Assembly (NCBI GenBank): GCA_017511185.1 | Contig: JAFWLF010000093.1 | Span: 737-32,736, forward strand | Length of the DNA: 32,000 nt | Origin: Lachnospiraceae bacterium | GTDB taxonomy: Bacteria; Bacillota; Clostridia; Lachnospirales; Lachnospiraceae | Direction of reading: 5' to 3' | Part shown: positions 10,992 to 30,064 of the stretch, piece by piece | How the letters are laid out: each line of letters starts with the position of its first letter | How positions within the stretch are numbered: the first letter of the stretch is position 1 | Position numbers and translations under genes: made by a program | The notes under the pieces: model-generated | Told to the model about the DNA's origin: nothing | What the model saw: the letters and a program-made list of their open reading frames with translations, nothing else | Database searches by the model: none

Positions 10992-12740
10992 TTGTCTGAT
11001 GCAGTAAATATCATGCGAAGAGCGGCGTCGGTCGAGAAAGCGCCGCTTTTTGAACCCTACAGTAAAGTTATCATTCATGTCGGGTTGAGCGACTCCGGCG
11101 ACACGGAAATCACATACGAGGCCGGAAATGATTCCGGGCGCACACTGGAGATCAACAACGAATGGGGCACCCAGATGATGGCAGATACCATTCTGGCAAA
11201 AATCAGGGGATATCAGTATCAGCCTCTTTTTGCAAGCGGCGCGCTGGTAGATCCTTCGGTTGAACTGGGCGATGGAATTACCGTCAACGGGATTTATTCC
11301 GGGATCTTCGTGCAGGCAACTACTTTCAACAGCCAGATGGCTTCTGATGTATCAGCTCCTGTCGATGAGGAAATTGAGCACGAATATGGTTTCGAAAGCA
11401 AGACCGACCGCGCATACACCAGGATGGTCGCTCAGACACGTTCCGGAATCAGCCTGAGCGCAGAAGAAATAGCGGCAGAGGTTGCAAGAGCGACAGACGC
11501 TGAGGGTGAACTGAGCGGCAGAATAACAGTAAATGCTGAAAATATTACTGCAGAGGTCACAAGAGCAACAGGTGCTGAAAGTACGTTGAGCGGCCGGATA
11601 ACAGTAAATGCTGAAAATATTACTGCAGAGGTCACAAGAGCAACAGGTGCTGAAAGTACGTTGAGCGGCCGGATAACAGTAAATGCCGAAAATATCACCG
11701 CAGAGGTCACAAGAGCGACAGACGCCGAGGGAACGCTTAGAAGTTCAATCTCACAAAATGCCGATGATATCACCGCAGAAGTCTCCAGAGCAACGAATGC
11801 TGAAGGAACAAAATTAAATCATACTTATTCCAGTTCTTCTTTCGGCTGGCAGCTGACATCTACAGCGTTTATATTAAAGGCAAACAACAAACAGGTATTC
11901 AAAGCAGATAAAAACGGTATAACAGTCACCGGAAGCGGAGAGTTTTCTGGCAAAATCACTGCAACAAGCGGATATATTGGAAACGGCTCAAGCGGATTTA
12001 CAATTTCAAATACGGCAATCTATAACGGAATGCAATCCCTTAGAGATACATCTAATAATGGTGTATATGTTGGGACTGATGGTATTGCCATCGGAAAAGG
12101 TGCTTTTAAAGTAACTTATACCGGCGCAGTTACAGCAACAAATCTGTCAATCACAGGCGGATCCATAGAAATCGGAAATAATTTTTCTGTAGATTTATAC
12201 GGAAATCTTAGCGCTAATAATGCTACGTTTAAAGGAACTGTATACTTCCAAAATGGTCAGTCAATAAGCAGCCTGTCATCAGCAAACCTTTATACAGGTG
12301 CATATCAGGCGAGTTCAAACTATGGGTCCTGGAACGGGACAACGTCAACAGTTAACACGAATGGACAAAACTGGACAAATGCTTATGACTCCGCGTGCGT
12401 GGAGGGAGGATATTCTTATGATGGTGCATCATATGGATATACTTCCCATAGTATCTTTGAGCATCCGGACGGTGAAGCATACTGCACATATCTGTATACA
12501 TATTACCTCAAGGCAACAGAAGGCATTAACTTTAGTGATGCATCGTTGGCACTGGGTGATTTATATTTAAAATATGGCAATAGTAACTATCATGCTCAAT
12601 GGGTGGAAACGTCAGGAAGTATTAATTATTCCACGACATACAAAGTTGCAGATATAAATGGAAATGAGCATTGGACTGGTGAATTTTCGAATCCTCCGGT
12701 ATCCGTTTCGCCTGGGTGGGTAGTAGGATTGAGATCTTAA
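10992..12740 (+). CDS. Tail fibre / tail-associated protein with 25-aa tandem repeats
   Basis: TTG start after GAGGGGGTGG. 582 aa. The central repeat is AEVTRATGAESTLSGRITVNAENIT. The C-terminus is Gly/Ser/Thr/Asn-rich and fibre-like. Confidence 0.7.
   Translation: MSDAVNIMRRAASVEKAPLFEPYSKVIIHVGLSDSGDTEITYEAGNDSGRTLEINNEWGTQMMADTILAKIRGYQYQPLFASGALVDPSVELGDGITVNGIYSGIFVQATTFNSQMASDVSAPVDEEIEHEYGFESKTDRAYTRMVAQTRSGISLSAEEIAAEVARATDAEGELSGRITVNAENITAEVTRATGAESTLSGRITVNAENITAEVTRATGAESTLSGRITVNAENITAEVTRATDAEGTLRSSISQNADDITAEVSRATNAEGTKLNHTYSSSSFGWQLTSTAFILKANNKQVFKADKNGITVTGSGEFSGKITATSGYIGNGSSGFTISNTAIYNGMQSLRDTSNNGVYVGTDGIAIGKGAFKVTYTGAVTATNLSITGGSIEIGNNFSVDLYGNLSANNATFKGTVYFQNGQSISSLSSANLYTGAYQASSNYGSWNGTTSTVNTNGQNWTNAYDSACVEGGYSYDGASYGYTSHSIFEHPDGEAYCTYLYTYYLKATEGINFSDASLALGDLYLKYGNSNYHAQWVETSGSINYSTTYKVADINGNEHWTGEFSNPPVSVSPGWVVGLRS
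11475..11807 (+). repeat. About 4.4 in-frame tandem copies of a 75-bp (25-aa) unit
   Basis: Units begin at 11475, 11550, 11625, 11700 and 11775 (partial). Units 2 and 3 encode identical peptides and differ at three synonymous positions. Confidence 0.9.
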
Positions 12741-17249: not shown

Positions 17250-18530
17250 TTAATTCAAAATCAAAAAAATTTCACCGTCTATAGAGATCTCAATCCGCTT
17301 CAGGATGCGGCTCCAGAAAGCCTTCTTCGCGTCTCTCGACAATCCCGTATACATCGCAAGGGAACCGGCAAGCTCCTCGATGTTGAGCGGGGTGCGGAGC
17401 GGGACGATGTCCGCCTCTGCAAGCTGCTCTTCCAGCGCTTTGTAATCTCTCTCATAGATTGCCCTGTCGATCAGGTCATCCAGATAAAGATCCTTCAGCT
17501 TCTCCATTTTGCGGCGGATCTTGTCCGGGTCCTTTTTCGGCGGGGCTTTTTTGTATATCTCGGCATTATATGCTTCCGCTGTATCGACCAGATGCTCCAG
17601 CAGAAAACTTTCGATCACATCCTCCCGGTTGTGCTTTTTCGCCTGGCATTTCATTTCCCCGTAATCGGAGCGGTTTGCACAGTAATAATAATTCGTGTTA
17701 TCCGGCCGGCTGGCCTTCATCCGCCTGCCGCATTCCCGGCAGTAAACCATGCCGCCGAAGAGATACACGATGCCGGTGCTCTTGTGCCTGACGGAGCGGG
17801 AATTGAGAATCTCCTGCGCTCTCCGGAAGGTCTCCTGGTCGATGATCCCCTCGTGCCATTCGCCGCCGAGATAACGCCTGTTCTGCAGCATCCGTTTCGT
17901 CGGCGTATAGGAATGGACGATCCCGTAGGTGTCGGCCATATAATCCCGGACTTTGAAGACGGATCGCAGCTCGATCAGCCTGCGGAACATATCCTGCACA
18001 ATCGGCGCCGTCTCCGGATCCGGCACCATGCGCTTGTCTGCGATCCTGTATCCGAGCGGGACCTTGCCGCTGCACAGTTCTCCTTTTGCCCGTTTCGCCT
18101 CGAAAACGAACCGGATCCTCTCACCGGTCCTCTCTGCCTCGTTCTGGGCAACGCTCAGCATGATGTTCACCTTGAAGCGCCCGCCGGCCGTGACCGTCTC
18201 GTAATCCTCCTGCGTGGCGATCCACGCGACACCGTGCGCGTCCAGAAGGTCCTGCACCTGATAGAACAGCTTCACCGACCGGAACCAGCGGTCAAGCCTG
18301 ATAAACAGGATCACGTCCACCCGGTCAAGCGCCTGCATGAGCTCTGTCATGGCAGGTCTTTTTTTATATCCCTTCTGCCCGGATATGCCCTCATCCAGGT
18401 ATTCGCCGACGATGACATATCCCTGCTCTTTCGCATACCGGCGCAGCGCCTCCAGCTGCGCACCGATGCTGTATCCGTGCCGCGCCTGCTCTTCCGTGCT
18501 GACGCGGCAATACAATGCTGCCCGTTTCAT
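17250..18530 (-). CDS. int: Large serine recombinase (phage integrase)
   Basis: N-terminal resolvase domain with YCRVSTEEQ, a recombinase domain, a Cys-rich zinc ribbon (CRECGRRM...YYCANR) and a C-terminal coiled coil. The ATG at 18530 follows GGAGG. Confidence 0.9.
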   Translation of the reverse strand: MKRAALYCRVSTEEQARHGYSIGAQLEALRRYAKEQGYVIVGEYLDEGISGQKGYKKRPAMTELMQALDRVDVILFIRLDRWFRSVKLFYQVQDLLDAHGVAWIATQEDYETVTAGGRFKVNIMLSVAQNEAERTGERIRFVFEAKRAKGELCSGKVPLGYRIADKRMVPDPETAPIVQDMFRRLIELRSVFKVRDYMADTYGIVHSYTPTKRMLQNRRYLGGEWHEGIIDQETFRRAQEILNSRSVRHKSTGIVYLFGGMVYCRECGRRMKASRPDNTNYYYCANRSDYGEMKCQAKKHNREDVIESFLLEHLVDTAEAYNAEIYKKAPPKKDPDKIRRKMEKLKDLYLDDLIDRAIYERDYKALEEQLAEADIVPLRTPLNIEELAGSLAMYTGLSRDAKKAFWSRILKRIEISIDGEIFLILN

Positions 18531-18595
18531 GATAACCTCCTTTTTTCCCAGCCACAAAGCGGGGGATTTTTATGCCCGTCTGTGAGAGAGAATTG

Positions 18596-19081
18596 TTATC
18601 TGCTTGGATCGTAGCGTGAGCAGGCTCGCTCAAGCTTTTTGAAATCACAGCAGATTTTCAAAAGAAACTTGTTTTTCTTGTTTACAACCTGAAAATATGT
18701 TTTTGAAGCATGCTCAAGGACATCGCCCTTATGCCTGTTAATAAATGACGCCTGACGCCTAAGTAGATCGGCGTACTGCGGATCTGGTTCTGCATTGATA
18801 TCAAAGCTTATCAGCGCGGAGTCCGGCACAGGAAGCATGTTGTTGAAACCGAGTAAACCAAGGGCACCGTTATCCAGCTTCATAATATGATGCCCGGCTT
18901 TAATGTTGATGTGATTTGGTTTCGGAGATTCCATCGGAACAAAGTATCGATAATCACCGACGAGAAGGACAACACCGACATATGGCCTGCGTCGGCCTTT
19001 GTTGTCCTGGACGCGTGGATCCTTAGTCCTTAGATAGCGGACGTAATGGTCGCTTAATCTGTAAATCTTTAATGATTCCAT
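18596..19081 (-). CDS. toxN: ToxN/AbiQ-family endoribonuclease toxin (type III toxin-antitoxin / abortive infection)
   Basis: MESLKIYRLSDHYVRYLRTKDPRV..RRPYVGVVLLVGDYRYFVPMESPKP.H...LGLLGFNNMLPVP...DINAE...YADLLRRQASFI follows the ToxN/AbiQ pattern. Tandem repeats and a terminator lie immediately upstream. GC looks lower than in neighbouring genes. Confidence 0.8.
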   Translation of the reverse strand: MESLKIYRLSDHYVRYLRTKDPRVQDNKGRRRPYVGVVLLVGDYRYFVPMESPKPNHINIKAGHHIMKLDNGALGLLGFNNMLPVPDSALISFDINAEPDPQYADLLRRQASFINRHKGDVLEHASKTYFQVVNKKNKFLLKICCDFKKLERACSRYDPSR

Positions 19082-19095
19082 CTTATCCCTTTCAC

Positions 19096-19131
19096 AAATA
19101 AAAGCAGGACAGACCATAAAGTCTATCCTGC
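19096..19131 (-). terminator. Intrinsic terminator between the repeat array and toxN
   Basis: On the minus-strand RNA this is an 11-bp stem (GCAGGAUAGAC / GUCUGUCCUGC, one G-U pair), a 6-nt loop, then UUUUAUUU. On the plus strand the same position is a C-A mismatch. Confidence 0.7.
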
Positions 19132-19238
19132 CTTTTTAAGCCCCTACTTACGGCAAGGGGTATCCGCTTTTTCAAGTCCCACCTTACGGCGTGGGCTTTC
19201 CGCTTTTTCAAGTCCCGTCTTACGGCGCGGGCTAACCG
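19132..19238 (-). ncRNA. toxI: ToxI-like antitoxin RNA array: three tandem repeats of 36, 36 and 35 nt
   Basis: Repeat boundaries are 19203-19238, 19167-19202 and 19132-19166. The minus-sense consensus is CGG..A..CCC..GCCGUAAG..GGG.CUU.AAAAAG. There are no spacers. The array sits directly upstream of toxN on the same strand. Confidence 0.7.
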
Positions 19239-19309
19239 CTTGGGGGGGTGGTGAATAACAACACAAGGCGAGTTATTAATTCACACTTGCAGATTACTCT
19301 GCGCAGGAT

Positions 19310-19338
19310 ATTGTATATGAAATTGTGTTTTTTTGCAA
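19310..19338 (-). promoter_or_regulatory. Sigma-70-type promoter for the repeat array and toxN
   Basis: On the minus strand: TTGCAA (19338-19333), a 17-nt spacer, then TACAAT (19315-19310). It lies about 65 nt upstream of the first repeat. Confidence 0.55.
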
Positions 19339-19446
19339 GACTATATGTAGAAAATATGGGATGAAGACCACCAAATAAGCATTTTCATAAGAAATTTTTA
19401 TGAATTTTTTTAGCCGCTTCGGCGGGGGATTATTTTATTTTCCGGA

Positions 19447-19851
19447 TCAGCCATTTGAAGCGGTCTGCCCTTTTTGGTACCGGCCGCCGGAGAGGAGATC
19501 CTCGGAATAGTCCAGAAGCTTTTCCTTGCCTTCCTGATTCAGATCCCGGTAGTTCCGGATCAGCGTCTGCTCGTTGTATGTGAGTTCCCATTCGCCGGTG
19601 GGGGATTTAAAACCAGCCGATGAATTGGAGGAAGGATTATCAGTATTCCCTATTATCCAGTTGGGATCGACTTGGAGAACACGAGCGATAGACTCAATAA
19701 CAGGTAGTTTTACCCTTTTGATAGTGCCTTTTTCATATCGTTGTACAGTAGATTTTGCAACTCCTATAGCAACTGCGACTTCATCCAGAGTTAAGCCTCT
19801 TTGATCTCTTGCACTGCTTATACGGCAACCTATATCATAATTTGAAAACAT
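19447..19851 (-). CDS. CI-like repressor (XRE-family HTH)
   Basis: The HTH is LTLDEVAVAIGVAKSTVQRYEKG. The ATG at 19851 follows GGAGGTG. It is divergent from a cro-like gene. Confidence 0.85.
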   Translation of the reverse strand: MFSNYDIGCRISSARDQRGLTLDEVAVAIGVAKSTVQRYEKGTIKRVKLPVIESIARVLQVDPNWIIGNTDNPSSNSSAGFKSPTGEWELTYNEQTLIRNYRDLNQEGKEKLLDYSEDLLSGGRYQKGQTASNG

Positions 19852-19872
19852 TATAATCACCTCCGCAGCGCT

Positions 19873-19984
19873 ATAATAACACATAAATTTGCACAGCGCA
19901 ATATTTTTATAATAAAAAATTGCACTGCGCTATTGACAATGGTCGGCGAGTGTGTTATCTTAAAGTAAAAGTTGCATAGCGCAA
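19873..19984. promoter_or_regulatory. Divergent promoter/operator switch region
   Basis: Rightward promoter: TTGACA (19933-19938), 17 nt, TGT-TATCTT (19956-19961). Leftward promoter: TTGCGC (19901-19896), 17 nt, TATTAT (19878-19873). Operator-like TTGCA-N3-CGCAA sites are at 19889-19901, 19920-19932 and 19972-19984. Confidence 0.65.
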
Positions 19985-20004
19985 CTACGAAAGGAGGGCA
20001 GAGG

Positions 20005-20220
20005 ATGCCAAACGTACAGCTTATAAAGGAACAGATGAAAGAAAAAGGCGTCACGCAAAAAGACCTTGCAGAGGCAATTGGGATTGCAGCTCCGACAGTT
20101 TCTCAGAAACTTAACGGGGTTCGACCACTTGATCTTGCAGAAGCAAGAATCATAGCTGATAAGCTTGGAATTGACGCTGGAGATTTCGGAAAATTCTTTT
20201 TTTCGTCGGATGTTGCGTAG
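20005..20220 (+). CDS. Cro-like / XRE-family HTH regulator
   Basis: The ATG at 20005 follows AAAGGAGGG. The HTH is VTQKDLAEAIGIAAPTVSQKLNG. The TTG start at 19972 in the track is rejected because it lies inside an operator and has no RBS. Confidence 0.85.
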   Translation: MPNVQLIKEQMKEKGVTQKDLAEAIGIAAPTVSQKLNGVRPLDLAEARIIADKLGIDAGDFGKFFFSSDVA

Positions 20221-20228
20221 CGCAACAA

Positions 20229-20279
20229 ATCTGTGGTATTTCTACCACAGATACCATGATTTGCCGTTGACAAATCATG
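20229..20279 (+). promoter_or_regulatory. Two adjacent perfect hairpins downstream of cro
   Basis: ATCTGTGGTA-tttc-TACCACAGAT (20229-20252) and CATGATTTG-ccgttga-CAAATCATG (20255-20279). Neither has a T-run. Confidence 0.5.
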
Positions 20280-20309
20280 ATGAAGCTTTGAGCGGGAGGA
20301 GGTGAACCA

Positions 20310-20519
20310 ATGGACCTGAAAGAGGAAATAAAAAAGCGACTGTCACAATACGAATTGGAGATGACAGAGGCTGAAAATCGTGAAGACTGGGAAGAGGCGG
20401 AAATGATCAGACGTGAGGTACAGGGTTATCGGCTCGGCCTCTCAATAGCAATCAACACCAAACTGATCAGGAGAGCGTTCAGCGGCACGATGTTTGACGC
20501 CCTGTATGAGGATCAGTAA
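20310..20519 (+). CDS. Hypothetical small acidic protein
   Basis: GGGAGGAGGTG RBS, 69 aa. Confidence 0.55.
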   Translation: MDLKEEIKKRLSQYELEMTEAENREDWEEAEMIRREVQGYRLGLSIAINTKLIRRAFSGTMFDALYEDQ

Positions 20520-28919: not shown

Positions 28920-29118
28920 TGCTGATCTTCTGATCGAAATGCTGAAAAATGCAAAAGAAGCACAGAAACAGGAAAAGGAGGACCAGATCGAGCGGGCTGC
29001 TCTGGATGTGATATACGATTTTGCAATTGAGGCCGTTGAGGAAGTAGCGGAGTTAATAGAGGAAGGAAGCAAAAGAAATGGCCATGATAGACAAGCAGAT
29101 CCTTGTGAAGGAAGTTGA
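28906..29118 (+). CDS. Hypothetical acidic helical protein; overlaps the recombinase start by 41 nt
   Basis: Internal ATG at 28906 of the track ORF 28819-29118. Confidence 0.35.
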   Translation: MRMIDADLLIEMLKNAKEAQKQEKEDQIERAALDVIYDFAIEAVEEVAELIEEGSKRNGHDRQADPCEGS

Positions 29119-30064
29119 AAAAGCATTATATGACAAGCTGACTGCGAAGGATATCAACACCGTAGCAACGGCACTGATGAACCGGCTGGCGGTATATGAA
29201 CTGAAACGGACGGAGGAATCCGAAACAGCCGGGGATTCAGAAGAACTGTTGAGCGGGTTCCTGGACGCGAAGCGGCTCTCCGGCTGCTCGGAAAAAACGC
29301 TGACCAGATATCGGTACGTCATCGGAAGAATGCTGGAGAGCGTAAAGGTGCCGATTCGTGAGATCACTGTGTACCACCTGCGCGGTTATCTGATGGATGA
29401 GAAAAAGCGCGGCATAAAAGACAGCACGCTGAACGGGAACAGGCAGGTATACAATTCCATGTTCAGCTGGCTGAAGCGGGAGGGAATGATCCCGATAAAT
29501 CCATGCGCGAACCTGGAAACGATTCGGAAAAAGAGGGAGATGAGGAAACCGTTCTCTGACGTGGAGATTGAAAGACTGAAGGAAGCCTGCACAAGCCTTC
29601 GGGATAAGGCTATCATAACCTTCCTGCTTTCAACGGGCTGCCGGATCAGTGAGGCGTGCGAACTGAACGTGGAAGATATCGACCTGCAGAACATGGAATG
29701 CACCGTGCTCGGGAAAGGAAATAAGGAAAGAAAGGTATACATGAACCCGGTGGCGGAGCTCCATCTGGAAGACTATCTGGACGAGCGGGGGAAAAAGGAA
29801 GGGCCTCTTTTCGCAGGAAAGGGATCCGAGAGGCTTCAGCCGGGAGGCGTCCGCACAATGCTTAAAAAAGTGGCTGAGCGGGCTGGTGTGGAAAACGTGC
29901 ACCCGCACCGTTTCCGGAGGACGCTGGCGACCAATCTGATCAAGCGCGGAATGACGATCCAGGAAGTGGCCAGGGTGCTCGGCCATGAGAAGATCGACAC
30001 GACAATGCGGTATATCTATCTCGATGACAGGGATGTAAAGAACAACCATATGAAATACGCCTGA
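29078..30064 (+). CDS. Tyrosine recombinase (XerC/XerD-like, phage integrase family)
   Basis: The C-terminal catalytic pattern is present: ...TGCRISEA..., HPHRFRRTLAT, LGHEKIDTTMRYIY. There is an N-terminal SAM-like core-binding domain. Confidence 0.85.
   Translation: MAMIDKQILVKEVEKALYDKLTAKDINTVATALMNRLAVYELKRTEESETAGDSEELLSGFLDAKRLSGCSEKTLTRYRYVIGRMLESVKVPIREITVYHLRGYLMDEKKRGIKDSTLNGNRQVYNSMFSWLKREGMIPINPCANLETIRKKREMRKPFSDVEIERLKEACTSLRDKAIITFLLSTGCRISEACELNVEDIDLQNMECTVLGKGNKERKVYMNPVAELHLEDYLDERGKKEGPLFAGKGSERLQPGGVRTMLKKVAERAGVENVHPHRFRRTLATNLIKRGMTIQEVARVLGHEKIDTTMRYIYLDDRDVKNNHMKYA

Follow-up and report, generated by a model that had tools for sequence, protein, structure and literature searches.

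The repeats of toxI have been described as nearly identical, in contrast to the non-identical repeats of tenpI (PMC12283969). In the 'group I' template of Blower 2012, ToxI RNA has stems of 3-4 nt and loops of 3-4, 1-2, and at most 7 nt (PMC3401426), and the same fold is found in the crystal structures of ToxI_Pa and ToxI_Bt (PMC5086642). Here, we analyze a 32,000-nt stretch of contig JAFWLF010000093.1 from a Lachnospiraceae bacterium (the window, to which all coordinates refer), in which the minus strand carries, in this order, a promoter-like site, three tandem units (19238..19132), a terminator, and a gene for a ToxN toxin. This order agrees with a first-pass annotation of the window in which the array was taken for a minus-strand precursor of ToxI-type antitoxin RNA. 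With its promoter-like site, tandem repeats, terminator, and full-length ToxN gene, the locus has every sequence-level hallmark of a ToxIN operon. It is very probably a ToxIN-family type III toxin-antitoxin module (abortive-infection type) in the lysogeny region of a temperate phage whose host resembles gut Firmicutes of the Oscillospiraceae, and would function by the standard type III mechanism, in which a nuclease is held in check by the RNA pseudoknots that it cuts from their precursor. Its three units differ from each other in sequence while their helices are retained.

The closest solved toxin belongs to ToxIN_Bt (pAW63, PDB 4ATO), which has the same sequence of promoter, approximately three repeats, terminator, and toxN. 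Its RNA folds into an H-type pseudoknot and takes part in a 3:3 ring (PMC5086642), and its A-rich junctions, with reported cleavage at AAA^AA (PMC8860590), resemble those of the window. The RNA cores are also alike: ToxI_Bt, which we read directly from pAW63, has GCCUUACCGUAGUAGGC, and unit 3 of the window has CCCUUGCCGUAAGUAGGG (a core also given as CCUUACCGUAGUAGG). The ToxI_Bt units themselves differ by compensatory change, with CCU:AGG vs. CUC:GAG in stem 2 and G-C vs. A-U as the first pair of stem 1. Unlike the window, ToxI_Bt has 34-nt units (34 nt x 2.9, vs. 35-36 nt), and its transcript lacks a long structured leader and has an A4 run before the first unit. Furthermore, the match between the two toxins is a distant one (E 8.7e-25), ToxIN_Bt is plasmid-borne, whereas the toxIN of the window lies in a phage lysogeny module, and the two toxins differ in the residues after the catalytic Ser and in the Thr aligned with Thr52, which is a Glu in the window.

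ToxIN_Pa (Pectobacterium atrosepticum pECA1039) and the E. coli ToxIN (PDB 2XDD, 7D8O) have the same Pfam family and operon layout as the window, and like it a 36-nt repeat, a pseudoknot, 3-4-bp stems, and single-stranded tails; their RNA is cleaved between A residues and their complex is a heterohexamer (PMC3401426, PMC8860590). However, the sequence of their repeat is unrelated to that of the window (AGGUGAUUUGCUACCUUUAAGUGCAGCUAGAAAUUC), the cleavage motif is AA^AU or GAA^AU instead of a pure A-run, arrays of this type hold 4-5.6 near-identical copies (96-99% in the arrays checked), and the match of the window toxin to these toxins (E 1e-13 to 5e-12) is weaker than to ToxN_Bt. AbiQ/antiQ of Lactococcus lactis (4GLK) belongs to the same toxin family and has about three repeats of about 35 nt (35 nt x 2.8; PMC5086642), but is plasmid-encoded, unlike the window locus. 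Repeats in tenpIN arrays (Sci Rep 2025, PMC12283969) differ by up to about 35% and can still form pseudoknots, as in the window, but these systems have a toxin of the TenpN family and longer repeats, of which there are usually two. The toxin of the window was matched only by the Pfam ToxN_toxin and PADLOC AbiQ models, not by a CptN/TenpN-type toxin, and its units of 35-36 nt contrast with the longer CptIN/TenpIN repeats (about 40-50 nt or more).

Units, fold, and junctions of the array

Read 5' to 3' on the minus strand, positions 19238..19132 consist of three head-to-tail units of 36, 36, and 35 nt (CGGTTAGCCCGCGCCGTAAGACGGGACTTGAAAAAG, CGGAAAGCCCACGCCGTAAGGTGGGACTTGAAAAAG, and CGGATACCCCTTGCCGTAAGTAGGGGCTTAAAAAG), exactly as delimited by the first-pass annotation. 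Tandem Repeats Finder reports a period of 36 with 3.3 copies and 80% matches for 19123..19241, and the pattern CGG-N4-CCC-N2-GCCGTAAG-N2-GGG occurs three times in the window, always in the array, with no occurrence expected (100 shuffles). The elements CGG, GCCGUAAG (8 nt), and AAAAAG, previously noted as invariant, are identical in all three units.

Two short helices can be drawn in every unit. In unit 1 (19203..19238), CGG (19238-19236) faces CCG (19225-19223) in stem 1, and CCCG (19231-19228) faces CGGG (19217-19214) in stem 2; the 3' tail ACUUG is followed by an A5-G junction. Unit 2 (19167..19202), with stem 1 formed by CGG (19202-19200) and CCG (19189-19187) and stem 2 by CCCA (19195-19192) and UGGG (19181-19178), is the only unit with a full A-run junction on both sides. 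In unit 3 (19132..19166), stem 1 comprises CGG (19166-19164) and CCG (19153-19151) and stem 2 CCCU (19159-19156) and AGGG (19146-19143), the latter extended by an additional outer C-G pair where units 1 and 2 have G.A, and the 3' end AAAAAG abuts the terminator. The innermost stem position is C.A, C-G, and U.U in units 1, 2, and 3, respectively, and is mostly unpaired across the family. One pair of stem 2 had been singled out as covarying and read as G-C, A-U, and C-G. The covariation is real and is supported by the family data below, but the pair in unit 3 is U-A; the C-G was obtained by counting from the outer end of the stem, where unit 3 has its extra pair. Three copies with a lone covarying pair would be weak evidence on their own; the case becomes solid with the family data.

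To place the array in its family, 170 related loci were fetched from genomes, metagenomes, and viral contigs, and the region upstream of each toxin gene was extracted. Complete arrays were recovered from 160 loci (three units, n = 154; two units, n = 6), every one of them upstream of the toxin gene and on the same strand. The distinct three-unit arrays (n = 69, including that of the window) make up the alignment used here (A2), while counts at junctions and leader boundaries cover 75 distinct arrays.

Given no input structure, RNAalifold predicts exactly three 4-bp stems for the 69 arrays, one per unit and without inter-unit pairs, and double changes occur in 11 of its 12 predicted pairs. This helix is the short hairpin of the first-pass annotation, and it is 99% Watson-Crick across the family with many compensatory changes. 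However, a plain hairpin does not describe the fold. The CGG and the CCG of GCCGUAAG pair as stem 1, and the hairpin becomes stem 2 of a pseudoknot. The structure that we tested combines stem 2 with a helix of 3 bp in which the 5' NGG of each unit pairs with the CCN of its GCCGUAAG (27 pairs in total). With these pseudoknots, 85% of the cells are paired, double changes are found in 20 of the 27 pairs, and the covariation score is 0.323, compared to 0.107 for column shuffles (none of 500 reach the observed value) and at most 0.095 for slid partners. Among the core pairs (21 pairs x 69 arrays), 1441 of 1449 cells are Watson-Crick. The informative stem 1 pair of unit 1 is C-G in 50 arrays, A-U in 15, and U-A in 2, comparable switches occur in units 2 and 3, and the pair flagged earlier takes four pair types in each unit. 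Parsimony on a neighbor-joining tree of the toxins gives about 92 pair-state changes, with at least 12-13 independent changes per unit at the flagged pair and 9 at the informative stem 1 pair in unit 1, although these counts are approximate, as recombination or tree error would inflate them. An alternative pairing of CCN with the NGG of the following unit breaks in 15 of the 69 arrays, and the intra-unit pseudoknot is therefore preferred.

The stem and loop lengths of each unit (3 bp in stem 1, 4 bp in stem 2, and successive loops of ~4, ~2, and ~5 nt) fit the 'group I' template (PMC3401426), and each unit is predicted to fold as an H-type pseudoknot, like the known ToxI RNAs. The covariation thus backs the ToxI pseudoknot without recourse to a crystal structure, and the variation on homologous arrays, assessed with RNAalifold and shuffles, is compensatory and not random. 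With nearly all core cells paired despite some 92 inferred pair changes, the data uphold the earlier proposal that the divergence preserves structure and reflects selection on the fold. The natural variation of the clade resembles a mutagenesis experiment, in which the helices are free to vary while the G-C pairs of stem 1, the loop, and the A-run are fixed.

Both internal junctions consist of A5-A6(7) followed by G in all 75 arrays (A5 at 19204..19208 and 19168..19172 in the window), and A4-A7 follows unit 3. ToxN enzymes have been reported to cleave at AA^AU (Pa), GAA^AU (Ec), and AAA^AA (Bt) (PMC8860590). The idea that the A-rich junction is a plausible ToxN site is consistent with both its invariance and the motif of ToxN_Bt. 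Upstream of unit 1, the A-run is limited to 1-3 nt in 74 of 75 arrays and to 2 nt in the window. There, unit 1 is preceded by AAG (19239..19241, minus strand), the trinucleotide that also ends each inter-unit junction; its second A and its G are invariant in the 69 arrays, and its first A is at least 90% conserved. The presence of AAG before every unit, even unit 1 without a longer A-run, fits cleavage at AAA^AAG, with AAG as the predicted 5' tail of a processed unit. A processed unit would then read 5'-AAG-NGG...ACNN-AAA-3' and measure about 36 nt, the ACnn consensus before the A-run being common to all positions. With no A-run 5' of it, unit 1 may not be freed by ToxN and possibly stays joined to the leader unless trimmed by a different RNase.

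Unequal units within and between arrays

Mean within-array identity ranges from 0.66 to 0.98 over the 69 arrays, with the window in mid-range (0.79), and essentially identical units are found in one array type only. Unit lengths in the relatives vary from 35 to 38 nt. Unequal units are the rule in the clade of the window and no peculiarity of this phage. The few two-unit arrays occur almost only where the units of the clade are identical or nearly so (loci L050/L108/L110 vs. L106/L113, and L092/L163 vs. L154); the numbers are small, but they suggest that repeat identity accompanies copy-number instability.

The differences between units depend on position. Units at positions 1, 2, and 3 are closer to units at the same position in other arrays than to their own sisters in 50, 53, and 56 of the 69 arrays, respectively, and the nearest neighbor in another array shares the position in 36, 42, and 55 cases, where chance would give 23. 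Conservation is highest in unit 3, with a mean between-array identity of 0.79 (vs. 0.71 and 0.69 for the other two). A CCCU stem is present at position 3 in 47 of 69 arrays and CCCG is the commonest type at position 1 (26/69); the window follows the modal stem order of the family, CCCG/CCCA/CCCU. This same-position likeness indicates that the units split before the loci did and have not been homogenized since. Taken together with the ToxIN assignment of the locus, and with the same high confidence, the three units most probably differ as old, non-homogenized paralogs, whose helices would drift by compensatory change while stem 1, the GCCGUAAG loop, and the junction stay fixed.

Heterogeneity of this kind is also found in ToxIN arrays outside the clade. 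The notion that characterized ToxI arrays are near-identical, also voiced in the first-pass annotation, applies to the arrays of E. coli pTA137-2 (5.6 copies, 96% matches) and Klebsiella (4 copies, 99%), but not to the characterized ToxI_Bt of pAW63 (3.1 copies, 75%) or to three other arrays from Firmicutes, namely those of Clostridioides phage pCD1602_4 (3.2 copies, 78%), C. botulinum plasmid p1 (3.2 copies, 69%), and a Staphylococcus plasmid (2.9 copies, 73%). A Haemophilus array has 2.7 copies with 88% matches, and the three proteobacterial arrays (88-99%) are far more homogeneous than those from Firmicutes. As ToxI_Bt and the three other Firmicutes arrays are mixed, the divergence seen in the window is not unusual for this branch. 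The ToxN/AbiQ loci of Clostridioides phage pCD1602_4, C. botulinum p1/phage D-1873, and the Staphylococcus plasmids (39-41% toxin identity to the window) resemble the window in having three units of 35-38 nt, A-run junctions, and compensatory differences in both stems. They differ in their A-B-A order, in which units 1 and 3 are the same, compared to A-B-C in the window, and the pCD1602_4 and C. botulinum arrays have a full A5 before unit 1, unlike the window. Heterogeneous, structure-preserving repeats generally characterize the three-unit ToxIN arrays of Firmicutes, among them the crystallized ToxIN_Bt. This corrects the generalization of near-identical toxI repeats (PMC12283969), which fails for Firmicutes ToxIN. 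In our literature search, we found no account of structure-preserving repeat divergence in toxI.

Divergence could instead be selected because it stabilizes the array, by resisting slippage, recombination, or misfolding between neighbors, and fixes the copy number at three, which we regard as possible but doubtful. Of the six complete two-unit arrays, five come from clades with identical or near-identical units, the A-B-A order of the three other Firmicutes arrays means that adjacent units always differ, and RNAalifold finds no inter-unit helices. However, these numbers are small and phylogenetically non-independent, and in the window three of the four core stem pairs are common to all units, so that cross-pairing would still give three G-C pairs. 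G.U pairs would likewise allow typical CCCG and UCUG stems to cross-pair, and proteobacterial arrays keep 4-5.6 near-identical copies.

It is also conceivable, but unlikely, that the units are functionally non-equivalent and non-interchangeable, with unit 1 tethered to the leader, unit 3 acting as a tight binder, or a fixed order within one ToxN3:ToxI3 ring. The excess of same-position over sister likeness and the stronger conservation of unit 3 would agree with this, as would the asymmetric boundaries of the array, where an A-run of 1-3 nt 5' of unit 1 compares to 5-6(7) nt inside and the last A-run abuts the terminator. Moreover, nearly all arrays have three units, which equals the ring stoichiometry of the solved ToxIN complexes (PMC5086642). 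Still, same-position likeness alone is no proof of different functions, because plain shared ancestry without homogenization predicts it too. The tails expected to contact ToxN (ACnn) are not position-specific, some relatives (loci L106 and L050) make do with a single kind of unit in two or three identical copies, the first and third units coincide in other Firmicutes arrays, and ToxI activity can survive a raised or lowered repeat number (PMC5086642). A further step, by which one transcript would give the three distinct RNAs of one ring and the leader-fused unit 1 would alter the lifetime of the complex or of the antitoxin reserve and so tune toxin release, appears quite improbable. To our knowledge, such built-in asymmetry has not been described for any type III system. 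If the units were non-equivalent, or if the leader controlled antitoxin stability, this would bear on the activation threshold of type III systems.

We consider it very unlikely that the array is decaying, with one working unit (e.g. unit 3) and the others as relics. Unit 3 is indeed the most conserved and the most similar to ToxI_Bt, units 1 and 2 vary more, and the same question has been raised for the non-identical tenpI repeats (PMC12283969). On the other hand, all three units keep four of four core stem pairs and three of three stem 1 pairs, with compensatory changes, and their loop and junction nucleotides are invariant across a toxin divergence down to ~51% identity. The retention of stems, loops, and junctions in all units points to purifying selection on each of them.

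Readings without a minus-strand RNA are barely credible: a 40-codon TTG-start open reading frame (19266..19144) spans the array and the plus strand also folds into hairpins, but DNA iterons or operators and a coding repeat are ruled out by covariation of paired columns with a pseudoknot, which neither DNA nor protein would explain, and by the 35-38-nt units of relatives, which break any frame, while the minimum-free-energy fold of the 148-nt array region is no better than shuffled on the plus strand (z = -1.6, vs. -3.6 on the minus strand) and the promoter, the terminator, the toxin gene, and the A-rich (not U-rich) junctions all belong to the minus strand.

Operon, toxin, and proposed mechanism

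Downstream of the array, which ends 51 nt before its start codon, lies toxN (18596..19081, minus strand; ATG at 19081, with AAGGGA 5-10 nt upstream), encoding a 161-aa toxin of the ToxN/AbiQ endoribonuclease family. It matches Pfam PF13958 over profile positions 1-159 of 159 (E 6.4e-48) and the PADLOC AbiQ model (1.7e-45), and its matches among solved structures (E 9e-25 to 5e-12 overall) include ToxN_Bt (4ATO, 8.7e-25), AbiQ (4GLK, 1.9e-15), 7D8O, and 2XD0. We found 788 homologs at E < 1e-10 in Oscillospiraceae-type gut bacteria and metagenomes, mostly 59-84% identical, the majority with the same length of 161 aa and an identical start; among the compared loci, toxin identity falls to about 51%. 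The analysis adds a large uncultured ToxIN clade from gut Oscillospiraceae and their phages, with 788 toxins and ~70 distinct arrays. In an alignment to 7D8O, Lys33, Thr52, Ser53, and Lys55 of ToxN_Pa/Ec correspond to Arg32, Glu51, Ser52, and Lys54. The Ser and the second Lys are thus retained, and the exchange of Lys33 for Arg also occurs in ToxN_Bt. Residues 48-52 read VPMES (18927..18941, minus strand), with Glu51 at the position of Thr52, and chemistry or specificity may differ as a consequence.

A sigma-70-like promoter is predicted upstream of the array (19310..19338, minus strand; TTGCAA-17-TACAAT, 9 of 12 matches in a consensus scan), and related loci carry a TATAAT-like box equally far upstream of their leader hairpin. 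The transcript should begin a few nucleotides before hairpin 1 of a structured 68-nt leader (19242..19309, minus strand), which comprises hairpin 1 (19302..19289, GCAGA-GUAA-UCUGC), hairpin 2 (19284..19251), and a C-rich single-stranded tail (19250..19242). RNAalifold predicts hairpin 1 from 47 leaders, with double changes in all five pairs. Hairpin 2 was not recovered by MAFFT/RNAalifold because its sequence is too variable to align, but single-sequence folds of related leaders give the same two hairpins and a pyrimidine tail. This conserved layout is seen, for example, upstream of the arrays in L009, L013, L014, and L007. Judging from mRNA decay in Firmicutes, it is a reasonable guess that a 5'-terminal stem-loop stabilizes the RNA. 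In 21 of 75 relatives, the leader tail contains CCUCC, and in some the tail equals the 16S rRNA 3' end UCACCUCCUUUCUAAG, whereas the tail of the window, CACCACCCCCCC, lacks the motif. An anti-Shine-Dalgarno role of the tail, sequestering the toxN ribosome-binding site, received no locus-specific support: with a duplex energy of -6.5 kcal/mol, own leader/ribosome-binding-site pairs do no better than pairs across loci (-7.1) or tails that were shuffled (-6.9), with a permutation p of 0.998.

Between the array and toxN, an intrinsic terminator (19096..19131, minus strand) has an 11-bp G+C-rich stem (GCAGGAUAGAC : GUCUGUCCUGC), a 6-nt loop, and then UUUUAUUU, and is part of the minimum-free-energy fold. 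A rho-independent terminator in this place is among the criteria of Blower 2012 for the ToxIN family. The A-run of unit 3 can pair with the U-run of the terminator and thereby lengthen the stem. A hairpin with a U-run at this site was also seen in the related loci inspected by eye, without being counted. In a subclade with a toxin identity of 59-68% (L041, L042, L050, L106, L117, L123, L125, L148, and similar loci), an extra short hairpin (UUGCAUGGGCAA or CACGGGCAAC...) and AAAAG follow unit 3 ahead of the terminator; this hairpin is absent from the window.

By analogy with the solved systems, a constitutive promoter would drive the leader, the three ToxI units, a strong terminator with fractional read-through, and toxN. 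Each unit would fold on its own into an H-type pseudoknot with a 3-bp stem 1 (5' NGG : CCN) and a 4-bp stem 2, and ToxN would cut within the invariant A5-6 run, most likely at AAA^AAG, to release ~36-nt pseudoknots with single-stranded tails. Binding of these tails would inhibit ToxN within a closed ToxN3:ToxI3 ring of the kind solved for ToxIN_Pa, ToxIN_Bt, and ToxIN_Ec. Once transcription is shut off, for instance because a phage infects the cell, decay of the labile RNA would set ToxN free. Homology to 4ATO, 2XDD, and 7D8O suggests that the RNA neutralizes the toxin by direct 3:3 binding, and homology likewise suggests the cleavage position, ring assembly, the antitoxic activity of each unit, and the role in phage defense.

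Several observations weigh against this reading of the locus. A search of plasmid and phage collections yielded no relative above 41% toxin identity, the closest characterized toxin, ToxN_Bt, was matched by sequence search only (E 8.7e-25), and the motif E51-S52-P53-K54-P55, invariant in 24 clade members, places Glu51 where the catalytic Thr52 would be. An Rfam scan of 18000..20500 (E <= 10) returned no relevant family, only chance miRNA/sRNA matches far under the gathering scores, and a simple terminator scan did not list the terminator between the array and toxN. The first-pass annotation had pointed to a G.U pair that unit 3 gains on the plus strand where the minus-sense RNA has a C.A mismatch, and had rested the strand mainly on the terminator and the gene order; in the family, this asymmetry is uninformative about the strand, as almost no G.U pairs occur (2 U.G and 1 C.A among the 1449 core cells). 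Finally, the 5' side of unit 1 lacks an A-run, and a ring assembled from a single transcript's three units would require 5' processing of another kind.

Phage surroundings

The window represents a temperate siphophage, with genes for terminase, portal, major head, tape-measure, and endolysin proteins upstream of the locus. The toxIN genes are flanked on the same strand by a large serine recombinase just downstream of toxN (17250..18530, minus strand) and by a cI-like helix-turn-helix (HTH) gene just upstream. A second, tyrosine-integrase-like recombinase is encoded in the early region (29078..30064, plus strand; phrog_1, 1.9e-60). A close relative in Colidextribacter sp. OB.20 sits between housekeeping genes, suggesting that the module moves between phages and chromosomes.

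Two further features were found outside the toxIN locus. Between the divergent cI-like (19884..19447, minus strand) and cro-like (19972..20220, plus strand) HTH genes lies a 39-nt near-perfect palindrome (CGCAGUGCAAUUUUUUAUUAUAAAAAUAUUGCGCUGUGC, 19891..19929), which surfaced only through spurious Rfam miRNA matches and is probably the operator of the lysis-lysogeny switch. In the tail region, a 75-nt tandem repeat (11512..11794, plus strand; 2.8 copies, 95% matches, alternatively 150 nt x 1.9) lies inside an open reading frame of 582 aa (10992..12740) and probably encodes 25-residue repeats of a tail fiber-like protein.

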